Of a stretch of DNA of 64,000 bases, positions 6,537-40,525 are shown piece after piece. Position 1 is the first letter of the stretch; every line of letters starts with the position of its first letter. Both the position numbers and the translations under genes were made by a program. The notes under the pieces were generated by a model that worked only from the letters and a program-made list of their open reading frames with translations, was not told the DNA's origin and made no database searches. The stretch is from IMG/VR virus record IMGVR_UViG_3300031485_000046. The stretch is one strand, 5' to 3'. The DNA comes from a virus.

Positions 6537-6541
6537 AATAC

Positions 6542-11471: not shown

Positions 11472-11844
11472 AGTTTACCAACTCAGGCAGATACTTCCTG
11501 AGTGCGGGCAGACTGTAGAAAAACCTTGACGGTTTTCCTGTACCTGTTCTTGCCCTGAGGCATCCACCGCCTTCAGGGTAGAGGCTCATGGAGATCATGC
11601 GCCCGTTGGTGAAAGTGCCCTTCCAGGTAAGAGTTACCCTTCCAAAAATGTCTTCCTTAACTTCGATGTCAGGGTTGGGTTCCTCCCCTCTGACCTTTTC
11701 AAGTACCTCTACCCCTATTGAAAGGGGCCCGTAGGTGGTGATTTCTTTGCTGGGAGTGCCCCAGCAGTGGAGCATCCACCTGGCAAACTCGTGATATACC
11801 CTTTCTGCCTCCCTCGGGTCTTTTATGGTACGCCTTTCATCCAT
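11452..11844 (-). CDS. hypothetical protein
   Basis: 130 aa ORF, operon context. Confidence 0.55.
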   Translation of the reverse strand: MDERRTIKDPREAERVYHEFARWMLHCWGTPSKEITTYGPLSIGVEVLEKVRGEEPNPDIEVKEDIFGRVTLTWKGTFTNGRMISMSLYPEGGGCLRARTGTGKPSRFFYSLPALRKYLPELVNFEEEDN

Positions 11845-11845
11845 G

Positions 11846-12100
11846 TTAGTTATCCTCCTTTGCGGCTTTTCTGAAAACCGCCTTCAGCAGCTCGTGTCCT
11901 TCTTTTGAGATGCCTTTAATGTACTCTACCTTACCGCCGGGCTTCCTGGTATTTCTAGGGGCATCATGTATAATGAAGAGCCCTGCCCTTCCGTACATTA
12001 GCCTAGTTTCTTTGCGCGGATCATCCTCGCTTCTTTTCGAGGCGAGGATGATTTCAACTACCTGTTCGAGATGGTTTCTTACTGTCCTCATGGTACACAT
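11846..12100 (-). CDS. hypothetical protein (first gene of minus-strand early operon)
   Basis: 84 aa ORF adjacent to divergent promoter region 12101..12347. Confidence 0.5.
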   Translation of the reverse strand: MCTMRTVRNHLEQVVEIILASKRSEDDPRKETRLMYGRAGLFIIHDAPRNTRKPGGKVEYIKGISKEGHELLKAVFRKAAKEDN

Positions 12101-12238
12101 TCCTCCTTTGGTTTTCTGTACTAAGGATTAGGTTGTCAAGGGTCACGGGTTTGTGCTCACTTCGCTGTCTGATGCTATTCTCTCATACCATATTTGATAT
12201 GTCAAATGTCCAGTTTGTCAAACAATAGAGTCTTTTTA

Positions 12239-12267
12239 TTGACAGGATACGGTTAAGGATATATACT
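12239..12267 (+). promoter_or_regulatory. sigma70-like promoter TTGACA-N17-TATACT upstream of terminase genes
   Basis: TTGACA 12239..12244, 17-nt spacer, TATACT 12262..12267; SD GAAAGGAG and ATG 12348 downstream. Confidence 0.6.
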
Positions 12268-12347
12268 ATTTCAATCTACCTGTAATATTTTCATCTCGAA
12301 AAAATGTATATAATAGAAGCCAATTTTGAAAGGAGTGTTTCATACAC

Positions 12348-12914
12348 ATGGCATATCGAAAATCAGGGAGACCTTTAGCAGTAGCAGAACCGTGGAATGA
12401 ATCAATCCCAGAAAGGGCGTATGATCTTTGCCTTCTAGGATTGCGTGATGCCGATTTAGCCACGGCATTCGGAGTTTCTATATATACCATTGATAAATGG
12501 AAACAGACTCATCCAGAGTTTAGAGAAGCACTATCCAGAGGTAAAGAACAAGCTGACGCTAAAGTGGCAGACGCACTTTACCATAAGGCAGTAGGCTATG
12601 CCCATAAAGCTGTGGACATCAGAATAGTTGACGGCGAGGTAGTGAAAATACCATACACTAAAATCTATCCACCAGATACTACTGCCTGCATATTCTGGTT
12701 GAAGAATAGGCAAAGACAGTACTGGACGGATACCAAGCAAAATGTTCATACTGGTACAGTGGGTGTGGAACATACTATGAGACGTCAACTTGACCTTTCT
12801 GATTTCTCCAAAGAAGAACTTGCCCTAGCAGAAAAACTAGCCTCTAGGATGCTTCAGGAGGGTACTCAGGATGCAGAGTTTACAGAAGAGGGGGAGAATG
12901 ACGGGGATGAGTAA
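12348..12914 (+). CDS. terS: terminase small subunit
   Basis: 188 aa directly upstream of and overlapping large terminase; HTH-like N-terminus 'LATAFGVSIYTIDKW' and 'IFWLKNRQRQYW' segment typical of small terminases. Confidence 0.65.
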   Translation: MAYRKSGRPLAVAEPWNESIPERAYDLCLLGLRDADLATAFGVSIYTIDKWKQTHPEFREALSRGKEQADAKVADALYHKAVGYAHKAVDIRIVDGEVVKIPYTKIYPPDTTACIFWLKNRQRQYWTDTKQNVHTGTVGVEHTMRRQLDLSDFSKEELALAEKLASRMLQEGTQDAEFTEEGENDGDE

Positions 12915-19426: not shown

Positions 19427-19645
19427 TCATTTCGCCCGCTCCTCCCAGAACCGTCTGCGTCGCTCCTCCCTGTGACGCTTGATATTCTCCCGCACCCTCT
19501 GCGTGCGGGGCGGGAACGTGTTCAGATGGGTCAGCACCGGCTCCACGCTGACAGCTCTGCCGAATTCCCTCTCCCATTCCTGGGCGTAGATTTCCTCGTA
19601 GGATAACATTTCGCGAAATCTGAGCCCCGTGCATCGTCCGCTCAT
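19427..19645 (-). CDS. small basic hypothetical protein inside a GC-rich islet
   Basis: 72 aa ORF starting 1 nt after kdsB stop; local GC visibly about 60% versus ~40% surroundings; no recognised motif. Confidence 0.3.
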   Translation of the reverse strand: MSGRCTGLRFREMLSYEEIYAQEWEREFGRAVSVEPVLTHLNTFPPRTQRVRENIKRHREERRRRFWEERAK

Positions 19646-20436
19646 TCCTTACCCTCCTTTTTTTCTATAATTTCATCATATTCATTTTCTTTACCAGAGT
19701 TTATTATACAACGAACAGCTTCCAAATCAGCAGGAGTATCTACACTAGGTCCAACTTTTTTTGCTCTTGTTATTTCTACTTTAATGGAAAAATCATGTTC
19801 TAATATTCTGAGCTGTTCCAGTGATTCTGCTGATGCCAAAGGTGTTTGTGGCATTTTGGCATAATAATGGATTAAGAAACGTCTAGTAAATCCATAAATT
19901 CCTATATGTCGGTAGATGGGATATACTTCTTCCGGATCTCTAATAAAAGGGATAGGAGACCTACTGAAATATAAAGCATCTCCATTTATTCTGAATGCCA
20001 CTTTTACTACCGATGGATCATTGATAGTAGCGGTATCTGTAATAAGGGCACATATCGTAGCAGATTCCGTAGCCCTATTTTCAGTTTTATAAAATAATGA
20101 TATTACTTCATCAATCATACAAGGATTAAGTAATGGTTCATCCCCTTGTATGTTTATCACTATATTATTATTAGAGAATTTTTTAGCTATTTCCACAACT
20201 CTACTAGTTCCGTTTGTATGATTTGGAGAAGTTAGCATAGCTTCTCCACCGAAATTATTTACAGCCTGCACGATTCTTTCATCGTCAGTAGCTACAATCA
20301 ACCGGTCAAGTAAAGTAGATCGTGAGGCTCGCTCGTACACTCTCTGGATCATTGTTTTTCCGCATATATCAGCTAGAGGTTTACCGGGGAGCCTTGTAGA
20401 ATTGTATCTAGCGGGGATAACTCCTAAAGTTATCAT
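19642..20436 (-). CDS. kdsB: 3-deoxy-manno-octulosonate cytidylyltransferase (CMP-Kdo synthetase)
   Basis: 264 aa; near-collinear with KdsB hallmark segments 'VIPARYNSTRLPGKPL', 'VATDDERI', 'QGDEPL', 'ALYFSRSPIP', 'HIGIYGF', 'EQLRILE', 'VDTPADLE' (compared from memory with E. coli KdsB). Confidence 0.85.
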   Translation of the reverse strand: MITLGVIPARYNSTRLPGKPLADICGKTMIQRVYERASRSTLLDRLIVATDDERIVQAVNNFGGEAMLTSPNHTNGTSRVVEIAKKFSNNNIVINIQGDEPLLNPCMIDEVISLFYKTENRATESATICALITDTATINDPSVVKVAFRINGDALYFSRSPIPFIRDPEEVYPIYRHIGIYGFTRRFLIHYYAKMPQTPLASAESLEQLRILEHDFSIKVEITRAKKVGPSVDTPADLEAVRCIINSGKENEYDEIIEKKEGKE

Positions 20437-21669: not shown

Positions 21670-21796
21670 TGTCCCTCCTTATAAATTTGCGCTTCACTAT
21701 ATTATACAACACCATTTTTGCTCATTTATACATAGTTTTCCATGAAAATTGTGTTTAATTTGCAATTATAGTATACTGTATAGTTTTCTGTCATAG

Positions 21797-21825
21797 TAGA
21801 CAAAATTGAATTATGGGTATATAAT
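21797..21825 (+). promoter_or_regulatory. sigma70-like promoter TAGACA-N17-TATAAT for the late operon
   Basis: TAGACA 21797..21802, 17-nt spacer, TATAAT 21820..21825; SD AAGGAGG and portal start at 21848. Confidence 0.55.
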
Positions 21826-21847
21826 GTATTTATAATACGGTAAGGAG

Positions 21848-23308
21848 GTGAGTAGGATAGAAAATATCAGTACCAACGAATTGGTTGGGCAATTACAGCG
21901 GATTACAGCTATGGCTGAACTGGCTACAAGAATGAATGTCGGTGCTAGGATGGGAATGCAGTATGACGGCCAACGGGATATTGCAAAAGCTCTTGGCTAC
22001 CCACAAACAATACGGTACAACGACCTCCTTGCCGCATATACCCGTCAGGATATGGCGAAAGCCATTATAGATCGTCCCGTAAAATCTACTTGGCGTGGAG
22101 ATTTCAAGCTAGTAGAAACCCACAGGGACGATGATACGCAACTCGAAACAGCTTGGTCTACATTATATAGGAAATTGCACATAAAACAGAATTTCCTTAG
22201 AGTGGACAAGCTAGCCTGCCTCGGTAATTATGCTCTTCTTTTTCTTGGTTTCAATGATGTGAATAGTCCTGAAGAATTGATACGACCTGTTTCTGCTGGA
22301 GTAGGACGTGAATTGCTGTATTTGAAACCGTTTGGACAGAATGTCATTCAGATCAAAGATTGGGAAGATGATACAAGTTCACCTGAATATGGAATGCCGC
22401 TTATTTATGAAGTAGACATTGGAGAAGCATCATCTAAAAAGAGCCGAACTGTCAGCATCCATCGGTCAAGGATTGTTCATGTAGCTTTCGACCTACTTGA
22501 ATCAGAGTATGAAGGTGCTCCTGTTCTAGAAGTTGTTTTTAACCGTCTGAAAGACCTTGAAAAGCTAGTAGGCGGTTCTGCTGAAATGTTCTGGAGAGGT
22601 GCTAGACCTGGATATGCAGGTAAAATTGATCCAGAATACATGCTGACGAAAGATACGGAAGAGGGATTGAAACGCCAGCTGGATGAGTTTGAAAATAATC
22701 TGCGAAGGATACTCATGCTTGAAGGTGTTACACTCGATAGCCTTGAGCCGCAGGTAGTTGACCCGTCTATGCACGTTGATATCCAGATTCAGATGATTTC
22801 TGCTATTACTGGTATTCCTAAGAGAATTCTTACAGGAAGTGAGCGAGGTGATCTTGCTTCTACGCAAGACAAAGATAACTGGCTCGACCTTATCCAAATG
22901 CGACGGGAAGAATATGCTGAACCTAAGATCATTCGAGCAACCATTGACCGTTGTATTGAATTTGGTGTGCTTCCTAAGCCTGAAAAGGAAACATACAAAA
23001 TAAAATGGCAGGATCTTTATGCACCGTCTGTTAAGGATCAAGCGGACATTGGGCAGATACGTTCGCTTGCCTTGAAACATTATACGTACAATCCTGAAGC
23101 AGAGCAGTTTATCCCGTTTGAAGCGTTCCTTACATTCTTCCTTGGTTTGGAAGATGAGGAAGTGGAGTATATCAAAAAGCTCCAGCAAACAAGTGAAAGG
23201 ATATTGACGCCTGAATTAAAGGAACTTGCGAATGAAAATGCACCAACACGGAGAGAACGCCCTCCGCGGAGAGGAATACCTCGAGAGGATGAAGAACTAG
23301 AAAAGTGA
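21848..23308 (+). CDS. portal protein (DUF1073-like)
   Basis: 486 aa first gene of late operon, followed by head-morphogenesis and capsid genes; acidic C-terminus; family assignment from remembered patterns and gene order. Confidence 0.65.
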   Translation: MSRIENISTNELVGQLQRITAMAELATRMNVGARMGMQYDGQRDIAKALGYPQTIRYNDLLAAYTRQDMAKAIIDRPVKSTWRGDFKLVETHRDDDTQLETAWSTLYRKLHIKQNFLRVDKLACLGNYALLFLGFNDVNSPEELIRPVSAGVGRELLYLKPFGQNVIQIKDWEDDTSSPEYGMPLIYEVDIGEASSKKSRTVSIHRSRIVHVAFDLLESEYEGAPVLEVVFNRLKDLEKLVGGSAEMFWRGARPGYAGKIDPEYMLTKDTEEGLKRQLDEFENNLRRILMLEGVTLDSLEPQVVDPSMHVDIQIQMISAITGIPKRILTGSERGDLASTQDKDNWLDLIQMRREEYAEPKIIRATIDRCIEFGVLPKPEKETYKIKWQDLYAPSVKDQADIGQIRSLALKHYTYNPEAEQFIPFEAFLTFFLGLEDEEVEYIKKLQQTSERILTPELKELANENAPTRRERPPRRGIPREDEELEK

Positions 23309-23448
23309 GCAGGCTATTGGGGCAGACTAGGGAAATAACTACACTTACTTATAATGGGCAGGTTTATTTGCCCTAGTCTGCTTCTCCTGCTCCAGCTATT
23401 CTTCATTCTCCTGATAATATAGATTGCAAAGGAGGTGGTGATTAAACA

Positions 23449-24873
23449 ATGACAACCGCAGTAATCAGTATGTATCAGGTGCAGGCAAATAATTATGAAA
23501 TTCGTATGGAAACGTACATGGGAAGAAAGCATTTGATCGTTCCTGTAGTGATGATGGTAGAAGGTGTGCATTGTGGTAGTGCTGGCCCGTTGTTTCATTC
23601 AATAGAAGAGCTTGGTAAGTACCCTGATTCTTGGAATGGAATCCCTGTTTCTATTCAGCATCCCGAGCAAGATGGGCAGTATATTTCCGCAAACAGTCCT
23701 GAAGTTCTTGAACGGCAGACTGTTGGGCAGGTTTTCAATACGTTTGTTGATGGAAATAAGCTAAAAGCAGAGTGCTGGATTGACATTGAACGTATTACCA
23801 CTATTAGTCCAGAAGCATACGCATATCTCCAGAATAAACGACCTCTGGAAGTGAGTATTGGTGTGTTTTCAGATGATATTCCACAAGAAGGCGATTGGAA
23901 CGGAGAACATTATATAGCTGTTGCCACCAATCATCGTCCTGATCATCTTGCTCTTCTTCCTGGTGGCAGAGGTGCGTGTTCCTGGGCAGATGGAGCAGGT
24001 ATCAGAGCCAATTCTATGAAGAAAGGAGGAGAGCCGGTGGATATTACTGCAACGATAAAGGATCTTGTGTGTAAAGGATATGGAGTTCTATCGTATCAGA
24101 GTAATGAAGGTTTTCGTTCCATTATGTCGCAGATACAGGATGTGCTCAATGGGTACGATACGGGTCTAAAACTGCATTATCTGTCGGAAGTATACGAGGA
24201 TTTTTTCGTATATGAGGTGAATTCTCGTATCAATCCAGAAACCTACATTACATCCGTAAAGTATTACAAACGTCCGTATTCTGTTAATGAAGATGGAAAA
24301 GTTACGCTGGGAGATGTAGCTACGGAAGTGATGCGCAAAATTGTGTATGATGAGGTTAAAACTAATTCCAAGTATCGAAGAAAGGATGATGTGAAAGTGG
24401 ACAAAGCAAAAATGGATATTCTGGTCCAGAGCGGAGTGTTTTCCGAAGCTGACCAGGAGTGGCTTACGGGACTCGATGCCGAGCGCCTTGATAAGCTGGT
24501 TACTGCTTGCACTAAGAAAGTGGAAACTCCGCAGGCGAATGAGGCGAAAGTGGATATTCCCACAGTCATTCAGGCACTGGCTGAACAGTTTAAGACTCCT
24601 GAGCAGTACATCCAGCTGATGCCGGAAGAAATGCGTGATCAGATGGAATCGGGACTGAAACTGCACAGGGAACAGCGTCAGGCAGTCATTGACAAGATCA
24701 AGGCGTTCAATGTATTTTCGGAAGAAGAGCTTCAGAAAAAATCTATGGATGAACTGAACAAGATTTCTAAGCTGATTCCTGCGCCTAGGGATTATTCGCT
24801 TGCCGGAGCCAAATCTGTCAATACGAATACGGAAACTGAGGAAGTTCTGCTTCCTCTCGGGCTGAAAGCCTAA
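23449..24873 (+). CDS. head morphogenesis protein (putative prohead protease/scaffold, DUF2213-like)
   Basis: 474 aa between portal and capsid genes; SD AAAGGAGG; coiled-coil-rich C-terminal half consistent with scaffold function. Confidence 0.55.
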   Translation: MTTAVISMYQVQANNYEIRMETYMGRKHLIVPVVMMVEGVHCGSAGPLFHSIEELGKYPDSWNGIPVSIQHPEQDGQYISANSPEVLERQTVGQVFNTFVDGNKLKAECWIDIERITTISPEAYAYLQNKRPLEVSIGVFSDDIPQEGDWNGEHYIAVATNHRPDHLALLPGGRGACSWADGAGIRANSMKKGGEPVDITATIKDLVCKGYGVLSYQSNEGFRSIMSQIQDVLNGYDTGLKLHYLSEVYEDFFVYEVNSRINPETYITSVKYYKRPYSVNEDGKVTLGDVATEVMRKIVYDEVKTNSKYRRKDDVKVDKAKMDILVQSGVFSEADQEWLTGLDAERLDKLVTACTKKVETPQANEAKVDIPTVIQALAEQFKTPEQYIQLMPEEMRDQMESGLKLHREQRQAVIDKIKAFNVFSEEELQKKSMDELNKISKLIPAPRDYSLAGAKSVNTNTETEEVLLPLGLKA

Positions 24874-24894
24874 TAAAAAGGAGGGTAAAAGAAT

Positions 24895-25386
24895 ATGGCG
24901 TACAATACCATCAAAGTTAAGAAGTATTCGGATGTTATTGAGGAGAAAGTTGCCAGTGCGGCAATCACTCCGGGTATGCTTCTCATCATTGAAAGTGCAG
25001 GTACTGTGAAAGCGCACGATCAGGCGGATAAGGACGCATTTCCTATTTTCGCACTTGAGGACGAACTTCAGGGCAAAGGGATTGATGATGCGTATGCAGC
25101 GAATGACCCTGTCCAGTGCTGGATTCCCTATCGCGGAGATATTGTGAATGCTATTCTCGCTGACGGACAGAAGGTTGTTATTGGGGATCCTCTTACCAGT
25201 GATGGCTACGGTCGCCTGAAGAAGCATGTTACCGACGTTGGTGCGTCTGCGGCTGAACTTGTTTCCGTGTACCCGCTACAGATTGTTGGGTATGCCGCCG
25301 AAGCTCTTGACCTGTCTGGTTCTAGCGGAGCCGAAGTTTCAGGCCCTCTCGGCTATCACAAGCGCCTGCTCGTCAGGATTGCGTAA
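24895..25386 (+). CDS. hypothetical head structural/decoration protein
   Basis: 163 aa immediately upstream of major capsid gene; SD AAGGAGGG. Confidence 0.55.
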   Translation: MAYNTIKVKKYSDVIEEKVASAAITPGMLLIIESAGTVKAHDQADKDAFPIFALEDELQGKGIDDAYAANDPVQCWIPYRGDIVNAILADGQKVVIGDPLTSDGYGRLKKHVTDVGASAAELVSVYPLQIVGYAAEALDLSGSSGAEVSGPLGYHKRLLVRIA

Positions 25387-25413
25387 TCACAAACATAAGG
25401 AGGAGTGCTGAAT

Positions 25414-26535
25414 ATGGAACCCAATGTCTATATGGATTTTCTTGCTAACGGAGCGGCTCAGGGAGAAGTTGCCCAGAACCTTCAGGTGAATGGTCGGCTT
25501 GATCCTGCTATGCTTCGTCCGTATATTGGAAGGGATGGAGCATCCTACATCACCGTCTGCAAACACGGTGCTGATCCCAAGGATCCTAAGAGTTATCAGT
25601 CTATCCGCGTGAATTCTGGTGCAACTCTTCGCAGAGAAGAGTGGCAGTATCTGGACGAGGCTGTTCTCAATGTTTCTCGGTATCGTCTTGGCGGTATTGC
25701 TGACCTTGAGGCAAACGGACTTGTTTACAACCTCAACAATGCTATGGGAACCACCGTTCTTGAGTACCATGATGTATCTGACGCTTTCGAGGCAGAACTT
25801 ACGATGGATGGGGTTACTAGGAGCAAGGGAGACCGTGTGAATTTCGGTGCAAAGTACCTGCCCATTCCTATCATTCATGTGGACTACGAGATTAATGCTC
25901 GTGTTCTTGCCGCTTCTCGTAGCCTTGGTAATGCGCTCGATACGACTCAGGCAGAAGTTGCCGCTCGTAAGGTTATGGAGAAGCTAGAGAAAATGATGTT
26001 CACCAGCGAAACTTACTCGTTTGGTGGGGGAACAATCTATTCTCTTGTCAATCATCCTCATCGTAATCCTGTTACTCTCACGGTGAATTGGGATGATAGT
26101 ACGTCTACTTCTTCTGGTGATCCTGTCATTACAGGTGCAAAGATCATTCAGGATGTTCTTGCTATGAAGCAGGCAAGCATTGATGCTTACCACTATGGTC
26201 CCTGGATGCTATACATTCCGACCGCATACGAAACAGTCCTTGACTCGGATTATGATACCGTTACGCCTGGCACTACGATTCGGGAGAGGATTATGAAGAT
26301 CGAAGGTATCAAAGGTATCAAGGTTATTGATGTACTCGCTTCCAATAACGTGCTCCTTGTGCAGATGACCCCCGATGTGGTTCGCCTTGTGAAGGGCATG
26401 GCTATTCAGAACGTGGAATGGCAGACTGAGGGACGCTTCATCAATAAGTACAAAGTTATGACGATCCAGGTTCCTCAGGTTCGTTCTGACTACAACCAGA
26501 AGAGCGGCATCGTTCATCTCGCTCCTGCACCCTAA
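25414..26535 (+). CDS. major capsid protein (DUF2184-like)
   Basis: ATG 25414 with SD AAGGAGGA 9 nt upstream (track begins GTG 25405); ~373 aa; position after portal/scaffold. Confidence 0.7.
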   Translation: MEPNVYMDFLANGAAQGEVAQNLQVNGRLDPAMLRPYIGRDGASYITVCKHGADPKDPKSYQSIRVNSGATLRREEWQYLDEAVLNVSRYRLGGIADLEANGLVYNLNNAMGTTVLEYHDVSDAFEAELTMDGVTRSKGDRVNFGAKYLPIPIIHVDYEINARVLAASRSLGNALDTTQAEVAARKVMEKLEKMMFTSETYSFGGGTIYSLVNHPHRNPVTLTVNWDDSTSTSSGDPVITGAKIIQDVLAMKQASIDAYHYGPWMLYIPTAYETVLDSDYDTVTPGTTIRERIMKIEGIKGIKVIDVLASNNVLLVQMTPDVVRLVKGMAIQNVEWQTEGRFINKYKVMTIQVPQVRSDYNQKSGIVHLAPAP

Positions 26536-26582
26536 AGGTTAATATCAGGCTAATCACGCCTATATAAAGGAGGCATGTAAAA

Positions 26583-27011
26583 ATGGTTGAAAGTAAGGCA
26601 GTAAAGAAAAAGGTAGTAAAGAAAAAGGTTGTTGAAAAGAAAGAACCTGAAATTACTACTTCCAAAACTGAGGTGATTACTCCTCAGATTGTTGTTACCC
26701 CTCCGGGAATGTGTACATGGAGGAAAAAGGAAGGTGCTACATTCAGGCTTGGTAATGGTAAGAAAGTAAAGCCGAATGAAGTATTCAAGGCGTATCCTCG
26801 TGAAATTCCGCCTGCATTTCGTGACCTGTTTGAATTGCTTGAAGGTGATGAGAATGCTGTGGAACGAGTGATTACCGCTCCTTCTAAGTTTGCTATTGGT
26901 GAACGTGAAGACGGTATGTTTGATGTAGTTGATCCTGATGGTAAGTGTATCAATGATGTTCCGCTCGGTAAAGAGGATGCCGAAAAACTGCTTATAGCAC
27001 TCTCTACTTGA
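26583..27011 (+). CDS. hypothetical protein with Lys-rich N-terminus
   Basis: 142 aa; SD AAAGGAGG; 'KKKVVKKKVVEKK' tract; lies between capsid gene and transferase cassette. Confidence 0.55.
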   Translation: MVESKAVKKKVVKKKVVEKKEPEITTSKTEVITPQIVVTPPGMCTWRKKEGATFRLGNGKKVKPNEVFKAYPREIPPAFRDLFELLEGDENAVERVITAPSKFAIGEREDGMFDVVDPDGKCINDVPLGKEDAEKLLIALST

Positions 27012-27015
27012 TACA

Positions 27016-27729
27016 ATGCGGGCGTGGAATACTCCGAGGATATGGGATAAAGGTGAATGTTGGATAATAGGAGGAGGACCTTCTATTATGCGACAGTTCC
27101 ATATTCCTGAGAATGTGATTGAGGCGGTTAGAGAAAAAAGATTACCGCTTTCTGCATATTCTCCGTACATGGAAAGCATTCATTCTAAGCATATCATCGG
27201 AGTAAACATGGCATTCCAGCTAGGAAATTGGGTTGATTTTTGTTTCTTCGGAGACGATGGTTGGTTTCGGGACCATAGAAAAGAATTAGCCCAATTTACT
27301 GGTGTAAGGGTATCTTGCGCACCTATGTTCAGTAAAAATACGTACCATGCAGATAATGGGGAACGTATTAAGTACCTAGCGCAGGATCCTAAAAAATCAC
27401 ACGGTATTAGTGAAGTACCTTACACCGTATGTTGGAATGCAAATAGCGGAGCGGCGGCAATCAGCCTAGCTTCTCATCTAGGTGCTAAAAAGATTGTTCT
27501 GTTAGGATTCGATATGCAGTTAGATCCTAATGGAAATAGTCATTGGCACAAAGAGTATCAAATGAATCCAGCAAAACGATCCGTGTTTCCTCGACACCTT
27601 AGAGGGTTTCCAATTATCGCCGCGGATGCTAAACGGATGGGCATCGAAATACTAAATGCCTCACCTGAAAGCGTAATAGACGATTTTCCTAAAATGACAG
27701 TGGAGGCGATATTGAATGGTTCTCCATAA
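27016..27729 (+). CDS. CstII/Maf-like (GT42/DUF115-type) ulosonic-acid transferase-like protein
   Basis: 237 aa; 'IIGGGPS' N-terminus and 'NSGAAAISLASHLGAKKIVLLGFD' core resemble CstII 'IIAGNGPS' and 'SGVYMCAVAIALGYKEIYLSGIDF' (recalled, not searched). Confidence 0.55.
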   Translation: MRAWNTPRIWDKGECWIIGGGPSIMRQFHIPENVIEAVREKRLPLSAYSPYMESIHSKHIIGVNMAFQLGNWVDFCFFGDDGWFRDHRKELAQFTGVRVSCAPMFSKNTYHADNGERIKYLAQDPKKSHGISEVPYTVCWNANSGAAAISLASHLGAKKIVLLGFDMQLDPNGNSHWHKEYQMNPAKRSVFPRHLRGFPIIAADAKRMGIEILNASPESVIDDFPKMTVEAILNGSP

Positions 27730-28330
27730 AAACAATATCGCGGTTATAGGACACGGTCCTAGCACTCGTGGAAGGAAACTAGGCAGTTTCATTAACCTTT
27801 GTGATACGGTCATTCGCATGATCGAATGTGATTGGCAGGATGCAGAAGATTACGGTAGTAAATATACGATCGGTGTATATGCTACGGGAGGATCTGACGA
27901 TTTTACAAAGGTGATTGAACGAAAGCCTTCTCTTTGCTGGTGGGTGTACGTTGCGGCTGGAACCCGTCCTTCTACGGCGATGAATGATGATACAGTAGAT
28001 GCTCCAGGTGTTGCGGGTCGTCCGATACGGTGGTTACGAAGAACCGTATGGGATTGGATCGGTGATAATAAAAAGTTCTCTAGAGGTACTGCTGCCGCGA
28101 TTGCGTCTATGGCGATCCTAAAACCCACTACAGTTCATTTAGTTGGGTTTGATGATGTTGCAAGGGGTGGAATGCTGAAAGGAGCATATCATCCTCCTGA
28201 GTTGCAACAGTACCTCAAAGAACAAGGAAAGACACTTGCCAGAAGTGAAACAGACCATGATTGGAATAATGAAGGCACCGTACTCCAACGTGCCGCAGAC
28301 TATTACGGAGTTGAGGTGAATTTTCTATGA
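27716..28330 (+). CDS. CstII/Maf-like transferase-like protein (paralog of 27016..27729)
   Basis: 204 aa; 'IAVIGHGPS' and 'SRGTAAAIASMAILKPTTVHLVGFD' mirror the upstream paralog. Confidence 0.55.
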   Translation: MVLHKNNIAVIGHGPSTRGRKLGSFINLCDTVIRMIECDWQDAEDYGSKYTIGVYATGGSDDFTKVIERKPSLCWWVYVAAGTRPSTAMNDDTVDAPGVAGRPIRWLRRTVWDWIGDNKKFSRGTAAAIASMAILKPTTVHLVGFDDVARGGMLKGAYHPPELQQYLKEQGKTLARSETDHDWNNEGTVLQRAADYYGVEVNFL

Positions 28331-29565
28331 AGACAATATCAGAGGAATATATTCGCCTTAATTCTGAGGTACACAACCAGCGGAGAGGGTACGGTAATTC
28401 AGCCAATCGGTTTGCTAAGGACATTGGGCTTGTTTTGCATCAGTTCCACACAATGTCTTTTCTGGATTATGGATGCGGAAAAGAATCTTTGATCCGTTGT
28501 ATTACGAAGGACTATCCGTATCTTGCCCAGAGAGCAAAGTATGGAGCATACGATCCAGCTATACCGCACCGGTCCGTTAAGCCGGAAGAGCAGTATGATA
28601 TGGTTATTTCTACAGATGTTCTTGAACACATTGAACCTGAATATCTGTCAGCCGTGCTGGAAGAGATCAAAGGATATGCTAAAAAAGGCGTCTATCTGAA
28701 TATCTGTATGCGACCGTCAGGAGATATTCTACCTGATGGTCGAAATGCCCATCTGATCGTTAAAGATGCCCCGTGGTGGCGTGAAACACTATCCAAAGCG
28801 TTTGAAGGATGGGCACTGGAAGAACGGGATGTACTTGACTCTTGGCGCAATTATACAGTAGTATTGACACCACCTAAGATTCAAAAGCCATTAAATATCG
28901 TCTGTTTCTACTGGAAAGGTACGAGTAATCGGTACCCAGGATGGGACGATGTGGATTTGGCAAAGATTTATGTCAACAATCTGTATAATGGCGTCCGTCG
29001 AAATTTGAACAAGGATTACAAGTTCATCTTGTTTTCCAATGATATTGAAGATGGGCTGGATCCACATGTAGAGATACGAAAGTTCCAGCCTATCTCGTGG
29101 ACAGGGTGCAATCCTAAGTTGTATGTGCATAGCCCAGATGCAGGATTAGAGGGAAGGGTGCTTACGTTTGATATGGATACTATCATCGTAGGAGACCTTA
29201 CTAATTTTGCAGAATACGATGGGGCTTTCACTACACGGATGGAACCTGACCGAAGAAGAGTAACAGCAGGAGACCTGCTAGGATTTGAAGCAGGTGAAAC
29301 GTACCAGTTATGGGAGAATTATAAGAATATCTCCAAGTATGCTGAAAAGTATCAAGGAGATGAAAGGGAGATCTACAAACTTCTTTGGAAACATTTGCTG
29401 TACTGGCAAGAAGAAATACCCGGGCAGTTGGTTTCTTATAAAGGTGATGTTCGTCCTAATCAGAACAGACTGCCTAGAAATGCAAGAATTGTAAGTGCGC
29501 ACGGTAAGCCTCGTCCGCATGAGATCAATGCGGAATGGATTAAATCGTGTTGGTGGGGAAAATGA
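28327..29565 (+). CDS. class I SAM-dependent methyltransferase fused to a DxD-containing transferase-like domain
   Basis: 412 aa; MTase motif I 'FLDYGCGKES', motif II 'DMVISTDVLEHIEPE'; C-terminal 'LTFDMDTIIVGD' DxD-like region. Confidence 0.55.
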   Translation: MKTISEEYIRLNSEVHNQRRGYGNSANRFAKDIGLVLHQFHTMSFLDYGCGKESLIRCITKDYPYLAQRAKYGAYDPAIPHRSVKPEEQYDMVISTDVLEHIEPEYLSAVLEEIKGYAKKGVYLNICMRPSGDILPDGRNAHLIVKDAPWWRETLSKAFEGWALEERDVLDSWRNYTVVLTPPKIQKPLNIVCFYWKGTSNRYPGWDDVDLAKIYVNNLYNGVRRNLNKDYKFILFSNDIEDGLDPHVEIRKFQPISWTGCNPKLYVHSPDAGLEGRVLTFDMDTIIVGDLTNFAEYDGAFTTRMEPDRRRVTAGDLLGFEAGETYQLWENYKNISKYAEKYQGDEREIYKLLWKHLLYWQEEIPGQLVSYKGDVRPNQNRLPRNARIVSAHGKPRPHEINAEWIKSCWWGK

Positions 29566-30278
29566 AACCGTATGTAGAATCTCCCATTATCATAACAGGT
29601 TGTCCACGAAGCGGAACTAGCATCATTTCTGGGATGTTAGAAATATGTGGTGCATTTGCAGGAACTATTCCACAGCCTACGAAACACGAAACAAGAGGCA
29701 TGGGAGAGAATCGGGTTATATATGAGGATGTTGTTAAACCGTATATTCAGAGTTTGCAAGCGGATCCATCTGGACAATGGCCATTGATGGATTCTGAAAA
29801 ACTGATGATTCCTATCGACTGGGAATCAATGATTTCAGACGCCTTGCACAAGGATGGCTATATGGGAGGCAAATGGCTATATAAGAGTAATACTGCGGCT
29901 CTTATGTGGAAAGTGTGGTCCTACGCCTATCCTAGCGCCAAATGGGTCCTAGTACGCAGGCGTACAGGTGACATAGTTTCTTCATGTTTGCAGACCTCGT
30001 ATATGAAAGCATTCAAAAATCCTGCATATCGTAAGGAAATTGGAGCGGAAACAGAATCAGAAGCATGGATCCATTGGGTACATAAGTATGAAGAAGCCTT
30101 TGTAGGGATGTTGACTGCGGGAGTTAATTGTAAGGTTGTCTGGCCGGAAAGATTCGTAAGAAACGATTATCAACAGTTGTATGAAGTAATTGAATGGGTA
30201 GGGCTTGAATGGAAATCTTCTGTAGCAGATTATCTAGACCCAAAGCTATGGAAGAATGAACGGAAGGAGGAGTGCTGA
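29562..30278 (+). CDS. sulfotransferase (PAPS-dependent type)
   Basis: ATG 29562 overlapping upstream stop (ATGA); 5'-PSB-like 'IIITGCPRSGTS' and 3'-PB-like 'VRRRTGDIVSS'. Confidence 0.6.
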   Translation: MKPYVESPIIITGCPRSGTSIISGMLEICGAFAGTIPQPTKHETRGMGENRVIYEDVVKPYIQSLQADPSGQWPLMDSEKLMIPIDWESMISDALHKDGYMGGKWLYKSNTAALMWKVWSYAYPSAKWVLVRRRTGDIVSSCLQTSYMKAFKNPAYRKEIGAETESEAWIHWVHKYEEAFVGMLTAGVNCKVVWPERFVRNDYQQLYEVIEWVGLEWKSSVADYLDPKLWKNERKEEC

Positions 30279-30646
30279 TGGCTAGAGTAACTCCAGCGGA
30301 AGTAAAATTGATCCTTCCTGATTCTGAACTGACAGATCCTACGATCACTGCGTTTATCACCAGTGCGAATAATCTGGTAAATGCAGTGCTTACGGATTAC
30401 TTGACGGAGCCGTTGCTTACCGAAGTAGAAAAATGGCTGACCGCGCACATGATTGCTTCTACAGTTGAGAGAATGGCAACTAGGGAAGGTGCCGGCGGTG
30501 CAGAAATTTACTACACGGGTAAGTACGGACAGAATCTAACATCCACACCATACGGCCAGATGGTGCTGTCGTTAGATCCATCAGGAAGAATGGCGGCTCT
30601 CGGTGGCAAGACTGTCACCATGATTGCCATTAAGAATTTTGATTGA
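30278..30646 (+). CDS. putative head-tail connector/adaptor protein
   Basis: ATG 30278 with SD GGAAGGAGG 6 nt upstream; ~122 aa; first of four small genes preceding major tail gene. Confidence 0.5.
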   Translation: MARVTPAEVKLILPDSELTDPTITAFITSANNLVNAVLTDYLTEPLLTEVEKWLTAHMIASTVERMATREGAGGAEIYYTGKYGQNLTSTPYGQMVLSLDPSGRMAALGGKTVTMIAIKNFD

Positions 30647-35819: not shown

Positions 35820-36151
35820 TGGCAGAGACATTTTCCTATTCGCCTCTCTATGCGTATCAAAGAGGATTAAATCATAATGTCCTGATAACGGAGTTTGAAT
35901 CAGGAAAAGAGCAACGTAAGTATTTAGGAGTTCGTGCTAGGACGTGGACACTCGGATTCCGAGCCGACGTTGCTACCATCCAGGGAATCGAGGATTTCTA
36001 CAATGCCCGTGGTGGTAATTACGAGGCGTTCAACTGGACACCTCCGGGAGGAAGCGCCATTTCCGTCCGGTTTGAGGAAGGGAGCCTGTCGGTCAGTTAT
36101 TACGGCTCTCAGTACGGCGAATGTGAAGTCACATTGAGGGAGATATTATGA
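35819..36151 (+). CDS. minor tail protein, lambda gpM-like
   Basis: 110 aa; 'FYNARGGNYEAFNWTPP' matches lambda M 'FLEEHGGWKSFLWTPP' pattern (from memory). Confidence 0.65.
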   Translation: MAETFSYSPLYAYQRGLNHNVLITEFESGKEQRKYLGVRARTWTLGFRADVATIQGIEDFYNARGGNYEAFNWTPPGGSAISVRFEEGSLSVSYYGSQYGECEVTLREIL

Positions 36152-36690
36152 GCAGGGCAGGAGCGGCATATATAGCAGAATCGGCGAATGACGAACTGAA
36201 GCCTATCCTGCTGGTGCGTGCGCTGGATATTCCACAGGTGCTCAATCCTTCGGTCAAGGTCAGTCTGTATTTGACCAATGCGCAAACGGACATATCCTTT
36301 TTTGACGAGAATGATAACACCCAATTGTACACTGCATGCGCCCTGTCCTATGACCAGGTGCAGGCGTCCACGGATAATGAGATCGGCACGGTAAACGTGC
36401 GGCTGGACAACGTATCAGGGACGTTTACCAGCCTTGCGAAGGACTACCTTTTACGCGGCGTGAGAATGCATCTGCTGGAGGCGTTCCAGGATACGTTATT
36501 GTCTCCTGCCGGGGCGCGGTGGATATTCCAGGGACATCTCGAAAAAGCGATTATAGGGATGTCAGCCATCGAGGTGATGGTCAAGGCGGATTTTTCTCTT
36601 TCGACGCGGGTTCCTCGCAGGCTCTACTGGGTGAAGGACTTCCCGCATCTCCCGTCTGCGAAAGACCCGCGGACGCTGGCGCTGAAATGA
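36148..36690 (+). CDS. minor tail protein, lambda gpL-like
   Basis: 180 aa between M-like and K-like genes; assignment mainly by synteny. Confidence 0.5.
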   Translation: MSRAGAAYIAESANDELKPILLVRALDIPQVLNPSVKVSLYLTNAQTDISFFDENDNTQLYTACALSYDQVQASTDNEIGTVNVRLDNVSGTFTSLAKDYLLRGVRMHLLEAFQDTLLSPAGARWIFQGHLEKAIIGMSAIEVMVKADFSLSTRVPRRLYWVKDFPHLPSAKDPRTLALK

Positions 36691-37073
36691 TCGGTATTCC
36701 GTGGAAGACGAAAGGGCGGGACCGGGACGGGATTGACTGCGTCGGTCTAGCCCTTCTCGCGCAAAAGGAGCTGTACGGGCGGGAGTATGACTTCCCATTT
36801 GACTACGACCCGGAGACGGGGGATGAGCGCGTTTTGCTCGACTGGCTGGAAGACATAGCTGATGAAGTGGACATACCGCAGAATGGAGACCTGGTGATTT
36901 ATCGGATGCCGGGAATTGACGGGATTGTAAAACATCACATCGGTACGGTCGTTGGCGAGGCATTGTTGCACATTTATCCGGGGAAGAGTTCTCGGAAGGT
37001 GAAAATCAGGATGAAACGGATCTACAAAATCTACCGGGCGAAGGAGGTGGAGACATGCCGGGAGCGGCAATAG
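36687..37073 (+). CDS. tail assembly protein with NlpC/P60 peptidase domain (lambda gpK-like)
   Basis: Start at ATG 36687 (ATGA overlap; track ORF begins upstream at 36519); Cys-His-His triad context 'DCVGL', 'KHHIGTV', 'LLHIYPG'. Confidence 0.65.
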   Translation: MIGIPWKTKGRDRDGIDCVGLALLAQKELYGREYDFPFDYDPETGDERVLLDWLEDIADEVDIPQNGDLVIYRMPGIDGIVKHHIGTVVGEALLHIYPGKSSRKVKIRMKRIYKIYRAKEVETCRERQ

Positions 37074-40000
37074 GGGCGCTGTTAGGATTTGCCTTGTCAG
37101 GAACTGGGCTTGGGATAGGACTTGCAGGATTCCTTGGCGTTTCAGCCGGTACCCTCTGGATGGTTGGGGCCTCCCTCGGTTCGTTGTTCGACGGACCGGA
37201 TATCGACCTTGGAGGTTCGACGCCTAATTACACATTCGGACAGCTGTCGAATACGAAGAGCCAAATGCTCCCCATCCCCATCGTATACGGGCGGTGCAGG
37301 GTCGGCGGGAATGTGTTCATGCAGACGTTTTACGACGATACCTTGCAGAAAATGGATATGCTGGTCGGTGTTTCCGAAGGGCCAATCCAGTCCATAAAAT
37401 CCATTTACGCCAGCGACACGGAACTGACGGATGTAAACGGTGATATTACCCACGAATTGGAAGAGGTGACGCTGAACGTCCACCTCGGTGAACCAGGCCA
37501 GGTTGCTGACAGCCGAGACCCCAGCGGGAGCACATATGCGAATGTGGCTTATGTGGGGCTGACGCTGAAGGCGCAGGACGGGCTATCAGGCAACCCTACC
37601 ATATCGTCCATAGTGGAAGGGCGGAAGATATGGACGCCTGCTGGTACGATGTTTTCAAGGAACCCAGCGTGGATCGTCTATGACTTCCTGACCAATACCC
37701 GCTACGGCGTCGGCATTCCAACAGACCTGATCGACCTCGACTCATTCATGGCGTCCGCCGACTATTGTGACGCTCTGGTTGAGGGTGAACCTCGTTTCAC
37801 ACTGGATTATATCATCGACACTCAGCGACCGGCGGTGGACCATCTGCAATCCATGCTGGCTTGTTTTAGAGGGTATTTCCTCGCCCGGGACAAGATCGAA
37901 TTGCACGTGGAGCAGGCCGGGAGTGTGTACAAGGCCCTTGGGCCGGATAATTTCGTGAAGGACAGCTTCACCTGGTGGCAGAAGAGCGGCGACGATTCAC
38001 CGAACAGAATCACCCTGGAGTGGATCGACCCGGACAACCATTACGAGCAGTCCTCGGCTGTGTTTGAGTATCAGGAGGATATGCAGGCTCGTGGTGTTTT
38101 TGAAAAATCATTCTCCGTGCTCGGAGTAACCCGCTCGTCCCAGGTAGGTCGGTTGGGTAATTACCTGATGGAAACAGCAAAGCGGGTACAGAATTTCTGC
38201 TCGTTCCAGGTGGGACTCCAAGATGCCGACATCGAGGCAGGGGAAATCATATCCCTGACATATCCCGATTTTACGGGGTGGGATTCGAAACCCTTCCGGG
38301 TTGTGGCGGTGCAGGACCACGGTGATTCGGGTTTAGTTACAATCACCTGTGCGGAATATGATGCGACGGTATACGGTGATGATGCGCTGCCTGTGCAGAC
38401 ACCCATAGTAGACCCGACGCCCGTTACCTATGACGATGTGTACTCCCTCGCTCTTGAGGATATGGGGCATATCGCCGATGACGGGACATGGTTCCCGGTA
38501 ATTCGTGCTACGTGGCAGAACCCGTCCGACTACACGCCCGCTGCACTTAACATCCGCTGGCGATATAGCGGCGATACGGTATGGAACCTGCATCTGAACA
38601 CGTCCCGGCTGACCACGCAGACCAACATTACCGGGCTGACTACCGGAGAGGATCTGGAAGTTTGGGTTAATTGCGTTAAGCCAAATAATGGCAGGGAGAC
38701 AACCGGGGCGACGGCAACGCTGTCCGTAGGACGGGATGTTACCCCTCCGGCGGCCCCAACTTCCCTTACTGCAACGGGATGGTTTGGAAGCATTAATCTG
38801 GAATGGGTGAATCCTGCTGACAGGGACCTTAGTCATATCGAGGTATGGGAAAATGCCATTGATAACAGGGCAACCGCAGTAAAAATTGCCGAGACAAAAG
38901 GGACATCATACCAGCGGTATGTAGGGTCGTTCATTACTCGTTACTACTGGGTGCGGGCGGTTGATTTCTCAGGCAACGTGGGCGCATGGAACGCTACGGC
39001 AGGCACGGCTGGCAACTCTGACCAGAAGAACCATCAGGATTTTGTAGATTTGGTGCTACAGGAAAATCCGTATCTCGCAGAAGTACAGACAGACCTCAAC
39101 TCAGCGATAGTTTTAGGCGACACAAACATTAAGACAATTGACCTGCCTGGCTATGAGCAGAGGATAGCCAACCGCATTGATGAGGTCAACGATGACATAA
39201 TGACGCAGGTCAACACGTATGCTGACGGAACTATCGATGCGATGCTTGACGCTTCCGAAGCAATAAGTGCAGTAAGAGATGCGGGGATTATTACCGATCC
39301 TGTTACGGGATTGACAAGCATTTTCGCCCTTGATGCATACAAGACAGCAAATGACGCAAGAGTATCAAACGTTGAGATTGACCTTGATGCAGTCGAATCC
39401 ACTCTTACATCTAAGGTCACTCTGGCACAGGTGGACGAGCGGATCGCAGGGGCTGTCTTCGGCGATGCAGGGGAATTGCTCCTGTCCGGCGTGGATGCAC
39501 GGGTGTCGCTGGTAGAGGAGACCCTTGACGGTGTTGAGGCCGAACTTCTCGAAAAGGCAACATACGTGGAGGTGAACGAACTCGGCGGGCGAATCGGCAC
39601 AGCAGAGTCAAGGTTAGACGGTCATGATGCGGAGATTGCCATGCTTGCCACGTCACAGGAACTTGACGAGGTAGAGAGCCGTGTGACAACGGCAGAGCTT
39701 AATATCGATGCCCTTGAAGGATCAATTGTCAATAAGGTTGCCAGCACGGTAACGATTACACAAGACCAAGAGGAGCTAATAGCACAGGGCCTGGTTGATG
39801 CGATGCTAAACGACCGTGAGGCACAGACCGATGCTAAGGCAAAAACGCAGAGTGCATTAGCAATAGCGGAGTCTGAACTGTACGCCCATGTCAATGATGA
39901 GATGGAAGCAGAGGCGGGGCAGAGATTGTTGTTGGCGGCGAAAGTTGACAATAATCAAGCGACTATCCAGAGTGAGTCTGTCGCACGAGCAAATGCTGAT

Positions 40001-40525
40001 TCCGCCATAGCCTCTAATGTATCAACATTGTCAACCACCGTAGGGAACAACACATCAGCGATACAGACAATTGACAGTTCAGTAGACGGGATTCAATCAA
40101 AACACGCCGTTAAAATCGATACAAACGGATATGTCACAGGCTATGAACTTATCGGCACAGGCGCATCAAGCTCCATGGTGTTCCACGTTGATAATTTCCT
40201 AGTCGGCAAGCCGGGTACAACCAACAAATATCCGTTTGTAATCGGCACGGTAGACGGTGTATCGCGGGTTTCTATGGACTCGGCGTTTATACAGGATGCG
40301 GCAATCGAGAATGTGAAGATTGCAAATGCAACAATAACAAGGTTAAAAATTGAAGGACACACTCTGACTGAGGTCGCATCGTATTACGTTGCAGCAGCGA
40401 AGGATATGTTAGAGGACGCAACGTGGACTTACTACACGGATATCGACCAAATAACAATTACAACAGAAGCGGGTTATCCAGCACCGATAACGTGGACGGC
40501 AGTGCTCAATACAGGAGCAGGGTGA
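37055..40525 (+). CDS. host specificity/central tail fibre protein, lambda gpJ-like
   Basis: 1156 aa; 'NPAWIVYDFLTNTRYGVGIP' matches lambda J 'NMAWCLWDMLTHPRYGMG' region; coiled C-terminal region; SD AGGAGGTGGAG. Confidence 0.8.
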   Translation: MPGAAIGALLGFALSGTGLGIGLAGFLGVSAGTLWMVGASLGSLFDGPDIDLGGSTPNYTFGQLSNTKSQMLPIPIVYGRCRVGGNVFMQTFYDDTLQKMDMLVGVSEGPIQSIKSIYASDTELTDVNGDITHELEEVTLNVHLGEPGQVADSRDPSGSTYANVAYVGLTLKAQDGLSGNPTISSIVEGRKIWTPAGTMFSRNPAWIVYDFLTNTRYGVGIPTDLIDLDSFMASADYCDALVEGEPRFTLDYIIDTQRPAVDHLQSMLACFRGYFLARDKIELHVEQAGSVYKALGPDNFVKDSFTWWQKSGDDSPNRITLEWIDPDNHYEQSSAVFEYQEDMQARGVFEKSFSVLGVTRSSQVGRLGNYLMETAKRVQNFCSFQVGLQDADIEAGEIISLTYPDFTGWDSKPFRVVAVQDHGDSGLVTITCAEYDATVYGDDALPVQTPIVDPTPVTYDDVYSLALEDMGHIADDGTWFPVIRATWQNPSDYTPAALNIRWRYSGDTVWNLHLNTSRLTTQTNITGLTTGEDLEVWVNCVKPNNGRETTGATATLSVGRDVTPPAAPTSLTATGWFGSINLEWVNPADRDLSHIEVWENAIDNRATAVKIAETKGTSYQRYVGSFITRYYWVRAVDFSGNVGAWNATAGTAGNSDQKNHQDFVDLVLQENPYLAEVQTDLNSAIVLGDTNIKTIDLPGYEQRIANRIDEVNDDIMTQVNTYADGTIDAMLDASEAISAVRDAGIITDPVTGLTSIFALDAYKTANDARVSNVEIDLDAVESTLTSKVTLAQVDERIAGAVFGDAGELLLSGVDARVSLVEETLDGVEAELLEKATYVEVNELGGRIGTAESRLDGHDAEIAMLATSQELDEVESRVTTAELNIDALEGSIVNKVASTVTITQDQEELIAQGLVDAMLNDREAQTDAKAKTQSALAIAESELYAHVNDEMEAEAGQRLLLAAKVDNNQATIQSESVARANADSAIASNVSTLSTTVGNNTSAIQTIDSSVDGIQSKHAVKIDTNGYVTGYELIGTGASSSMVFHVDNFLVGKPGTTNKYPFVIGTVDGVSRVSMDSAFIQDAAIENVKIANATITRLKIEGHTLTEVASYYVAAAKDMLEDATWTYYTDIDQITITTEAGYPAPITWTAVLNTGAG

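Follow-up and report, generated by a model that had tools for sequence, protein, structure and literature searches.

Phage particles with glycosylated proteins are known from mycobacteriophages. Glycans are present on the capsid and tail-tube subunits of Che8 and further phages of cluster F1, and phage-encoded glycosyltransferases are presumed or shown to attach them, as cited in two articles (PMC12619734, PMC11256854). [quoted passage not shown] Here, a cassette of four enzyme genes, A to D, is described from the head operon of a tailed phage. It occupies positions 27016-30278 (+ strand) of the window, a 64,000-nucleotide stretch of the IMG/VR virus record IMGVR_UViG_3300031485_000046, and is preceded by the gene for a small protein, sm142. 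We hold it to be somewhat probable that the cassette is a late cytoplasmic module by which the phage modifies its own head proteins, either with an acidic, methylated and sulfated glycan or by direct protein sulfation. To our knowledge, some mycobacteriophages are the only phages with demonstrated virion glycosylation, which is seen as exceptional, and sulfate on a phage particle has never been shown. The mycobacteriophage case was reportedly treated by Freeman et al. in 2023.

Enzymes of the cassette

All four open reading frames (ORFs) lie between the capsid gene and the connector genes, at the positions and with the neighbours given in an earlier note on this DNA, which had proposed a virion glycosylation and sulfation system. 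Profile and structure searches placed none of the four in an unrelated structural family.

The first enzyme, A (27016-27729, +; 237 aa), is a minimal Maf-like glycosyltransferase. The 'xIGxGPS' and core motifs quoted in the note are real; A has WIIGGGPS and GAAAISLASHLGAKKIVLLGFD, and B has AVIGHGPS and TAAAIASMAILKPTTVHLVGFD. A matches phrog_4603 ('alpha-2,3-sialyltransferase') with an E-value of 3.7e-34. Sequence searches of the PDB gave no match to A. An AlphaFold2 model built with 45 homologues as input is confident (predicted local distance difference test, pLDDT, 94.3; predicted template modelling score, pTM, 0.92), and its catalytic domain has the sialyltransferase-like Rossmann variant fold, as in Maf/DUF115. 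The Maf/CstII pattern that had been recognised in A was borne out by these profile and structure searches. Against the MptE-like Pfam family PF01973, A reaches 19.8 bits, which is under the gathering cut-off of 34.6; a precomputed PF01973 match is present in a few A homologues. A and B could be read as MptE-like small-molecule pyrophosphokinases in a cassette for the synthesis or modification of a metabolite. We consider this reading very improbable, given the higher score for Maf, the conservation of the catalytic pair described below and the neighbouring genes.

In the Maf of M. magneticum (5MU5), E324 and D415 were reported to be essential for activity. The canonical DUF115-domain profile aligns to 5MU5 residues 275-416 (E 5.4e-4). 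Motif correspondence through this intermediate profile, a two-step mapping rather than a structural superposition, pairs 'DFQMLLE324' of 5MU5 with 'D74-FCFFG-D80' of A, and 'GVD415' with 'GFD166'. D80 and D166 are invariant in 45 sequences. Characterised members of the Maf/GT42/GT29 fold class use CMP-activated ulosonic acids. A is plausibly an active transferase of this class and putatively depends on a CMP-ulosonic acid. Its relatives form 365 homologous clusters, and 285 IMG/VR viral contigs encode one.

B (27716-28330, +; 204 aa) is a highly diverged second member of the fold class. The GxGPS and AAAI...LVGFD motifs are common to A and B; the statistical support for the paralogy stated in the note is weaker than implied. 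Pairwise BLASTP gave E = 0.10 and the profile-profile comparison (hhalign) E = 1.3e-4 at a probability of 54%; with close B homologues only, the values were E 4e-4 and 34%. A single intermediate sequence from one relative (L004) connects the two proteins at E = 7e-16, and because this value depends on that one sequence, firm paralogy is not claimed. B has no PF01973 match. Its match to the Pfam family GT29 (PF00777; E 0.022, 14.6 bits) is under the cut-off of 23. The four best PDB matches of the B profile are all GT29 sialyltransferases and cover B residues 8-57, but at E-values of 0.8-1.7. A candidate GT29 'VS' motif (GAYHP) in the C-terminal half was dropped, as the PDB search gave only chance matches to beta-2-microglobulin. 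The B family comprises just 14 clusters in 5.8 billion proteins, all from close relatives of this phage. B would be a very divergent, lineage-restricted relative of the fold of A, with an N-terminus weakly resembling the GT29 sialylmotif L. What is left of its earlier assignment to the CstII/Maf type are weak matches to GT29 and to the profile of A.

C (28327-29565, +; 412 aa) has two domains, which are resolved in a confident AlphaFold2 model (pLDDT 93.5). Residues 1-185 (28327-28881, +) pass the Pfam threshold for a class-I S-adenosylmethionine (SAM)-dependent methyltransferase and have the Rossmann methyltransferase fold. Residues ~186-412 (28882-29565, +) adopt a GT-A fold closest to glycosyltransferase family GT8 and related families, with D282-M283-D284 as the conserved DxD. 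Both the methyltransferase and the DxD-containing transferase domain had been predicted. Where the methyltransferase domain occurs in metagenomic proteins, a DUF115/Maf-like or GT-D glycosyltransferase domain is very often fused to it. These fusions tie it to work on glycans and point to a recurrent 'transfer and methylate' unit.

D (29547-30278, +; 243 aa) is a sulfotransferase of the type that uses 3'-phosphoadenosine-5'-phosphosulfate (PAPS), as the note had it. Its start is more probably the ATG at 29562 than 29547. D matches the Pfam family Sulfotransfer_3 (PF13469) over profile positions 1-215 of 216 (2.5e-11, 44.7 bits, cut-off 27). Across 43 homologues, R21, G23, K113, R138 and S146 do not vary, and S22 is kept in 42. 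The best PDB matches of the D profile (34 homologues) are the tyrosine sulfotransferases TPST1 (8.6e-7) and TPST2 (2.4e-5), over D positions 8-222; few bacterial PF13469 structures have been solved, which biases what counts as the closest solved relative. The conserved residues of D align with the PRSGT loop of TPST (5'-phosphosulfate binding, 5'-PSB), the lysine of its NKD motif and the arginine and serine of its VRD...S motif (3'-phosphate binding, 3'-PB). No D homologue was found in 50,697 GenBank phage records. Four relatives have an APS-kinase gene (adenosine 5'-phosphosulfate) within or beside the cassette, and in three of them it immediately follows D. These genes belong to family 14; family 13 was also considered as APS kinase and was ruled out by its HTH_48 match.

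A conserved slot with variable content

Related loci were collected in two ways. Via A, the best 80 of the 285 viral contigs were fetched, which yielded 47 complete slots. Via the capsid-protein profile, the best 80 of at least 567 IMG/VR contigs were taken, of which 58 had at least 1.5 kb downstream of the capsid gene. Essentially all A-selected loci have the same order: portal, protease, decoration, capsid, sm142, A, a variable stretch, D, adaptor and tail. The capsid-selected loci contain the cassette in some version in 58 of 58 cases and A in 55. The remaining three (L143, L167 and L173) have sm142 with D, with or without a C-like gene. L143 is minimal: between the capsid gene and the adaptor (8151-9094) it encodes a 75-aa sm142 and the sulfotransferase, which suggests that D can work without any phage glycosyltransferase. 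Every locus that extends far enough has a DUF4054 adaptor after the cassette.

The content of the slot varies. The 47 complete slots measure 1.9-9.6 kb and hold 2-12 tightly packed, co-directional ORFs from 71 sequence families. The variable middle includes several methyltransferase families, GT2, GT11, GT8, GT47, radical-SAM enzymes, APS kinase, GDP-mannose dehydratase, epimerases and DegT aminotransferases. A weak GT9 match (24.6 bits, cut-off 22) also occurs among the relatives. D is usually the last gene of the cassette and stands beside the methyltransferase-GT8 gene. The note had deduced a virion protein as acceptor from the placement in the operon. The conservation of the slot strengthens the link to the head; the acceptor itself stays a prediction.

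The small protein sm142 (26583-27011, +; 142 aa) is encoded directly upstream of A in nearly all loci. Its stop codon lies -8 to +13 nt from the start of A in 144 of 150 locus records (some contigs are counted twice), and ATGA-type overlaps dominate. A is not preceded by its own Shine-Dalgarno motif in the window, while the neighbouring structural genes have GGAGG; sm142 appears to be translationally coupled to A. The conserved motif from the N-terminus of sm142 recurs in two giant cassette proteins of 1,072 and 1,084 aa (L091:10678-13893 and L089:11916-15167), N-terminal in one and internal in the other, together with two GT8 domains and Methyltransf_24. The sm142 family has 596 representative clusters, and the best 150 are all 87-200 aa long, with no long fusion among them. 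The protein is absent from Brevundimonas phage MaInes, the closest cultured capsid relative (34% identity), which has homologues of the decoration protein and the adaptor and no cassette. The product of 26583-27011 had been listed among possible acceptors; by its coupling to A, the fusions and its absence in MaInes it behaves instead as part of the enzyme module. It may be an adaptor or specificity subunit of the modification enzymes and could compensate for the Maf flanking domains that A lacks.

These loci also bear on a rival explanation, remodelling of the host envelope. The enzymes would alter nascent lipopolysaccharide (LPS) core, capsule or another surface glycan during infection, and thereby stop progeny from re-adsorbing to lysing cells and debris or exclude superinfecting phages; the head operon would be a convenient late site. 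The phage-encoded CMP-Kdo synthetase KdsB, the GT8-like domain and the weak GT9 match are typical of LPS-core assembly by peripheral soluble transferases. The cassettes of relatives resemble O-antigen or capsule loci in content, and seroconverting phage glycosyltransferases are established. On the other hand, multi-pass membrane proteins were not found among 304 cassette ORFs (at most two weakly hydrophobic 19-residue windows, against five in a transporter control), and the 25 commonest cassette families include no flippase, polymerase, ligase or polyprenyl-phosphate transferase. The strict placement between capsid gene and adaptor in every capsid-selected relative and the coupling of sm142 are left unexplained, and D resembles protein-tyrosine sulfotransferases. 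Because the phage appears lytic and the genes late, little time would be available to rebuild the outer surface. We judge envelope remodelling to be unlikely. A cytoplasmic protein target is favoured by the soluble ORFs, the lack of membrane-glycan families and the TPST-like D.

Cultured phages with A-like genes share 27-31% identity with A. Pseudomonas phage vB_Pae_U7 (L133, PP003919.1, 5771-8551) encodes a small ORF and an A-like 'alpha-2,3-sialyltransferase' between its capsid gene and adaptor Ad1; its capsid gene has no match to that of the phage in the window. In the same phage, the head-closure and tail-terminator genes are separated by genes for a methyltransferase and for an unknown protein of 275 aa. 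Pseudomonas phage phPA-G likewise has an A-like gene between capsid gene and adaptor. In Caulobacter phage CcrColossus, the A-like gene is located beside tail genes and other glycosyltransferases, and in a P1-like phage among the 'pmg' morphogenetic genes. A search with the decoration protein for further cassette-less comparators among cultured phages gave one weak match only.

Contigs of 97-99% identity are present in the IMG samples 3300038675, 3300038674, 3300033166, 3300009690 and 3300009588. Some relatives are linked to cellular genomes. The 2.4-Mb contig L001 (GCA_900198705.1) contains at 5077-12525 the portal-to-C part of a related head operon, with an A of 65% identity; unrelated genes follow after the C-like ORF, which has no called gene. 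This arrangement resembles the truncated remnant of a prophage and might identify a host. Three cassette-bearing contigs were binned with archaea (L095 in a Bathyarchaeia metagenome-assembled genome, MAG, and L100 and L101 in a Nanohaloarchaea MAG), and haloarchaeal tailed viruses (H33, H42-H44) have capsid homologues. Unless the binning is unreliable, this type of capsid may occur across domains of life, perhaps together with the cassette.

Proposed modification of head proteins: operon, candidate acceptors and mechanism

The rightward morphogenesis operon runs from the portal gene (21848-23308, +) into the tail genes. The portal gene is followed by a DUF2213 protease/scaffold (23449-24873, +), the head decoration protein (24895-25386, +; phrog_766, 5e-16), the HK97-type major capsid protein (25405-26535, +; Pfam DUF6260, 8e-23), sm142, A to D and the DUF4054 head-tail adaptor (30272-30646, +; Pfam 4e-5, 24.2 bits, cut-off 23.9), which closes the slot on the right. 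Further connector genes and those for the tail terminator and tail tube come next. From sm142 to the adaptor, the junctions measure +4, -14, -4, -19 and -7 nt; the cassette ORFs are co-directional and overlap or abut. A terminator scan found no terminator-like site on the + strand within the cassette. Strong GGAGG Shine-Dalgarno motifs precede the structural genes (gene starts within 21820-30280). Among the promoter-like matches of the region, a divergent sigma-70-like pair at 21765-21825 (11 of 12 consensus matches each) scored best; one member is directed toward the portal gene and the other toward the leftward genes including kdsB. A DNA search with 25405-30278 gave no match to GenBank phages.

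KdsB (19642-20436, - strand) is encoded among the leftward genes that diverge from the head operon. By NCBIfam cut-offs it is a genuine CMP-Kdo synthetase, in agreement with the note: it scores 287.3 bits against NF003952 (cut-off 193) and 212.3 bits against TIGR00466 (cut-off 155.2), and only 46.5 bits against PseF (cut-off 205.7). KdsB is present in 7 of the 50,697 GenBank phage records. An uncultured 462-kb phage (LR756500.1) encodes a homologue of KdsB (45% identical) as well as an A-like protein (25% identical), at 130143-130814 and 212319-212894.

Two head proteins are candidate acceptors; we regard them as a lead rather than as evidence. The decoration protein has a semi-conserved serine-rich loop, 'DLSGSSGxExSG' (residues 138-150, nt 25306-25344), in which serine and threonine make up 0.45 of the residues versus 0.126 in the whole protein (68 homologues). 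In the capsid protein, residues 230-237 (nt 26092-26115) are a serine/threonine insertion specific to the lineage, DDSTSTSS, and residues 279-295 (nt 26239-26289) form a strongly conserved motif, LDxDYDTTTPGTTIRER. Among 68 sequences, Y283 and D282 are each conserved in 67, D280 in 63 and T291 in 68. MaInes has LSKDYKTQS-DKSIISR at the position of this motif. TPSTs prefer an acidic tyrosine context, and LDSDYDTVTPGTTIR may be a peptide substrate of D.

The likeness of D to TPST and its occurrence as the lone enzyme in one relative suggest that it may act on protein rather than tailor a sugar; its usual position after sugar enzymes makes a carbohydrate acceptor equally possible. This leads to an alternative with two separate modifications, in which D sulfates tyrosine (or serine/threonine) of a head protein directly, and A, B and C glycosylate it apart or act on another protein. 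Support comes from the D profile, whose best and full-length matches are TPST1 and TPST2, from L143, whose cassette consists of sm142 and D, and from L167 and L173, where D occurs but A does not. The conserved capsid D-x-D-Y-D is replaced by K-D-Y-K in the cassette-less relative. On the other side, the closest solved structures are a biased sample, D usually stands at the end of a row of sugar-enzyme genes, beside the methyltransferase-GT8 gene, and the tyrosine motif, compared with a single outgroup, could be purely structural. Two fully separate modifications seem improbable to us. Direct protein sulfation as such is a variant of the head-protein modification that we favour, does not exclude glycosylation and is rated as likely as sulfation of a glycan.

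For the favoured modification of head proteins, a sequence of steps can be proposed, each held with less confidence than the overall reading. sm142 would be made in step with A and serve as its adaptor or specificity subunit. As the priming step, A would attach a CMP-activated ulosonic acid to serine or threonine residues of the decoration and/or capsid protein. The acid used by this phage would probably be Kdo, since Maf enzymes accept CMP-Kdo and the phage adds a KdsB that could boost its supply. B may add a second residue derived from a CMP-sugar or serve another site. The GT8-like domain of C would add a hexose from a uridine diphosphate (UDP)-sugar, and its methyltransferase domain would O-methylate the glycan. 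With PAPS as donor, D would sulfate the glycan or, directly, a protein tyrosine. The predicted outcome is an acidic, methylated and sulfated surface coat. The chemistry of the coat would differ between related phages, since the central genes of the cassette are exchanged in the manner of an O-antigen locus. More tentatively, and in our view possible rather than probable, the slot is an O-antigen-like hypervariable 'virion serotype' locus of a large uncultivated clade, which would coat the capsid with acidic, Kdo-type glycans, methylated and sulfated, and/or with sulfotyrosine.

Several observations weigh against the modification of head proteins. A is a catalytic core of 237 aa, compared with 632-666 aa for 5MU5, and just the central domain of Maf aligns; without the flanking domains, the likeness to Maf gives no protein acceptor. 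The acceptor is a candidate, chosen by serine/threonine- or acid-rich loops that were compared with a single cassette-less outgroup, MaInes. sm142 as a mucin-like acceptor was rejected as a general idea, with serine/threonine fractions of 0.05-0.14 and tails of varying composition. LPS-core assembly at the cytoplasmic face of the inner membrane likewise draws on GT8, GT9 and KdsB. Late expression of the cassette is deduced from gene order alone, and the promoter scan scored consensus matches under the assumption of sigma-70-type promoters, which may not be those of the host. Finally, tblastn found no KdsB within 10 kb of the cassette in the fetched relatives, although the contigs of the closest relatives begin at the portal gene and are too short. 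The 'donor-activation set' may thus be peculiar to this phage; of the set of donor activation, transfer and tailoring proposed in the note, the enzymes are real and the linkage of KdsB to the cassette is not seen in relatives.

Genome context and comparison with known systems

The window is a segment of a tailed-phage genome whose arms carry replication and nucleotide-metabolism genes. They encode a primase, an SNF2 helicase, a sigma-factor-like protein, a family-A DNA polymerase with an intein, a clamp and clamp loader, RecA, an SbcCD-like nuclease, ThyX, dUTPase, QueC and a QueF-like protein. The polymerase (56263-58107, -) has an intein-splicing/HINT domain inserted at residues ~189-308. 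No lysogeny genes were found among the ORFs scanned, the phage has its own replication machinery, and it appears to be lytic. The G+C content is 0.52-0.55 at 36001-40000 and 0.36-0.46 elsewhere in the window. This stretch spans small ORFs (36148-37073) and most of a tail protein (37055-40525) with a Phage-tail_3 and a tail-tip fibre domain; it may be an imported host-recognition module. The sole hint to the host is a 98%-identical 21-kb contig (L086), which was binned into a MAG of Mariniphaga (Bacteroidota). Bacteroidota are generally not known to make much use of GGAGG-type Shine-Dalgarno motifs, and the strong GGAGG motifs of the phage suggest that this binning may be wrong. The host is probably not an actinobacterium.

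The replication arm also encodes QueC (1e-55), a QueF-like protein (4.5e-29) and a Vut_1/YhhQ-family transporter (1.7e-53), at 61931-63188 (-) and 47192-47842 (-). This set suggests a pathway for 7-deazaguanine (preQ0-type) DNA modification apart from the cassette. It bears on a further rival, in which the transferases of the cassette decorate modified bases at packaging. Phage glycosyltransferases and methyltransferases commonly act on DNA, and the nearness of packaging and head genes could in principle suit such a role. DNA hypermodification is most improbable, as a separate 7-deazaguanine pathway is already present, and base-activating enzymes such as a hydroxymethylase or TET were found neither in the cassette nor in the 25 commonest families of the relatives. 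Moreover, we know of no DNA substrates of Maf/GT29-type or TPST-like enzymes.

A search of a literature library found no description of this cassette, of phage sulfotransferases near capsid genes or of Maf-like genes in phage structural modules, and cryo-EM papers on HFTV1 and Jabs had no bearing on it. If head proteins are modified as proposed, this would be the first sulfated phage particle, sulfation being unprecedented, and an unrecognised route by which phages diversify their own surface chemistry. A Maf-like transferase of the CMP-ulosonic-acid type and a TPST-like sulfotransferase would be newly linked to phage particles. Self-modification of the particle would be a conserved, rapidly diversifying trait of a large and environmentally widespread clade, with a bearing on the surface contact of phages with hosts, decoys, predators and immune systems, and on how 'auxiliary metabolic' sugar genes in viromes are read. 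The compact soluble enzymes would be a source for protein glyco- and sulfo-engineering. Escherichia coli supplies CMP-Kdo, UDP-sugars, SAM and PAPS, and vB_Pae_U7 could be a cultured experimental proxy.

The closest known case is that of the mycobacteriophages, whose own glycosyltransferases act, or are presumed to act, on capsid and tail-tube subunits and give a surface glycan coat; in the phage described here, such a coat is predicted from genes. Mycobacteriophage glycosyltransferase genes are located near the 3' end of the genome, and those of the cassette are in the head operon. The Maf-like and TPST-like anchors, the hypervariable island in a fixed slot and the small partner sm142 are further differences. 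Chlorovirus PBCV-1 glycosylates its capsid with virus-encoded cytoplasmic glycosyltransferases (A64R, PDB 2P6W). Unlike the phage, it is a eukaryotic giant virus with N-linked glycans and has no ulosonic-acid transferase, sulfotransferase or conserved slot.

Individual enzymes have relatives in cellular systems. Maf (5MU5) O-glycosylates flagellin with pseudaminic or legionaminic acid, N-acetylneuraminic acid (Neu5Ac) or Kdo; the phage has no flagellin, and its candidate substrates are HK97-type head proteins. A differs from Maf by the missing N- and C-terminal domains and by a PF01973 score under the gathering threshold. D aligns with TPST1/2 over the full length, including the 5'-PSB PRSGT loop, the catalytic-site lysine and the 3'-PB arginine and serine. 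The E-values are modest (1e-6 to 1e-5), and D is predicted to be cytoplasmic and is phage-encoded. A bacterial protein-tyrosine sulfotransferase is known in RaxST.

Clusters for O-antigen, LPS core and capsule are likewise modular and hypervariable, with transferase, methyltransferase, sugar-nucleotide and sulfation genes flanked by conserved genes. In the cassettes, no Wzx/Wzy/WaaL-type protein or initiating polyprenyl-phosphate transferase was detected, and the location is within a late structural operon. New in comparison with all these systems are the set of enzymes, the dedicated partner sm142, a slot whose place between capsid and adaptor genes is fixed, a variability like that of O-antigen loci and the spread over hundreds of uncultivated phages.

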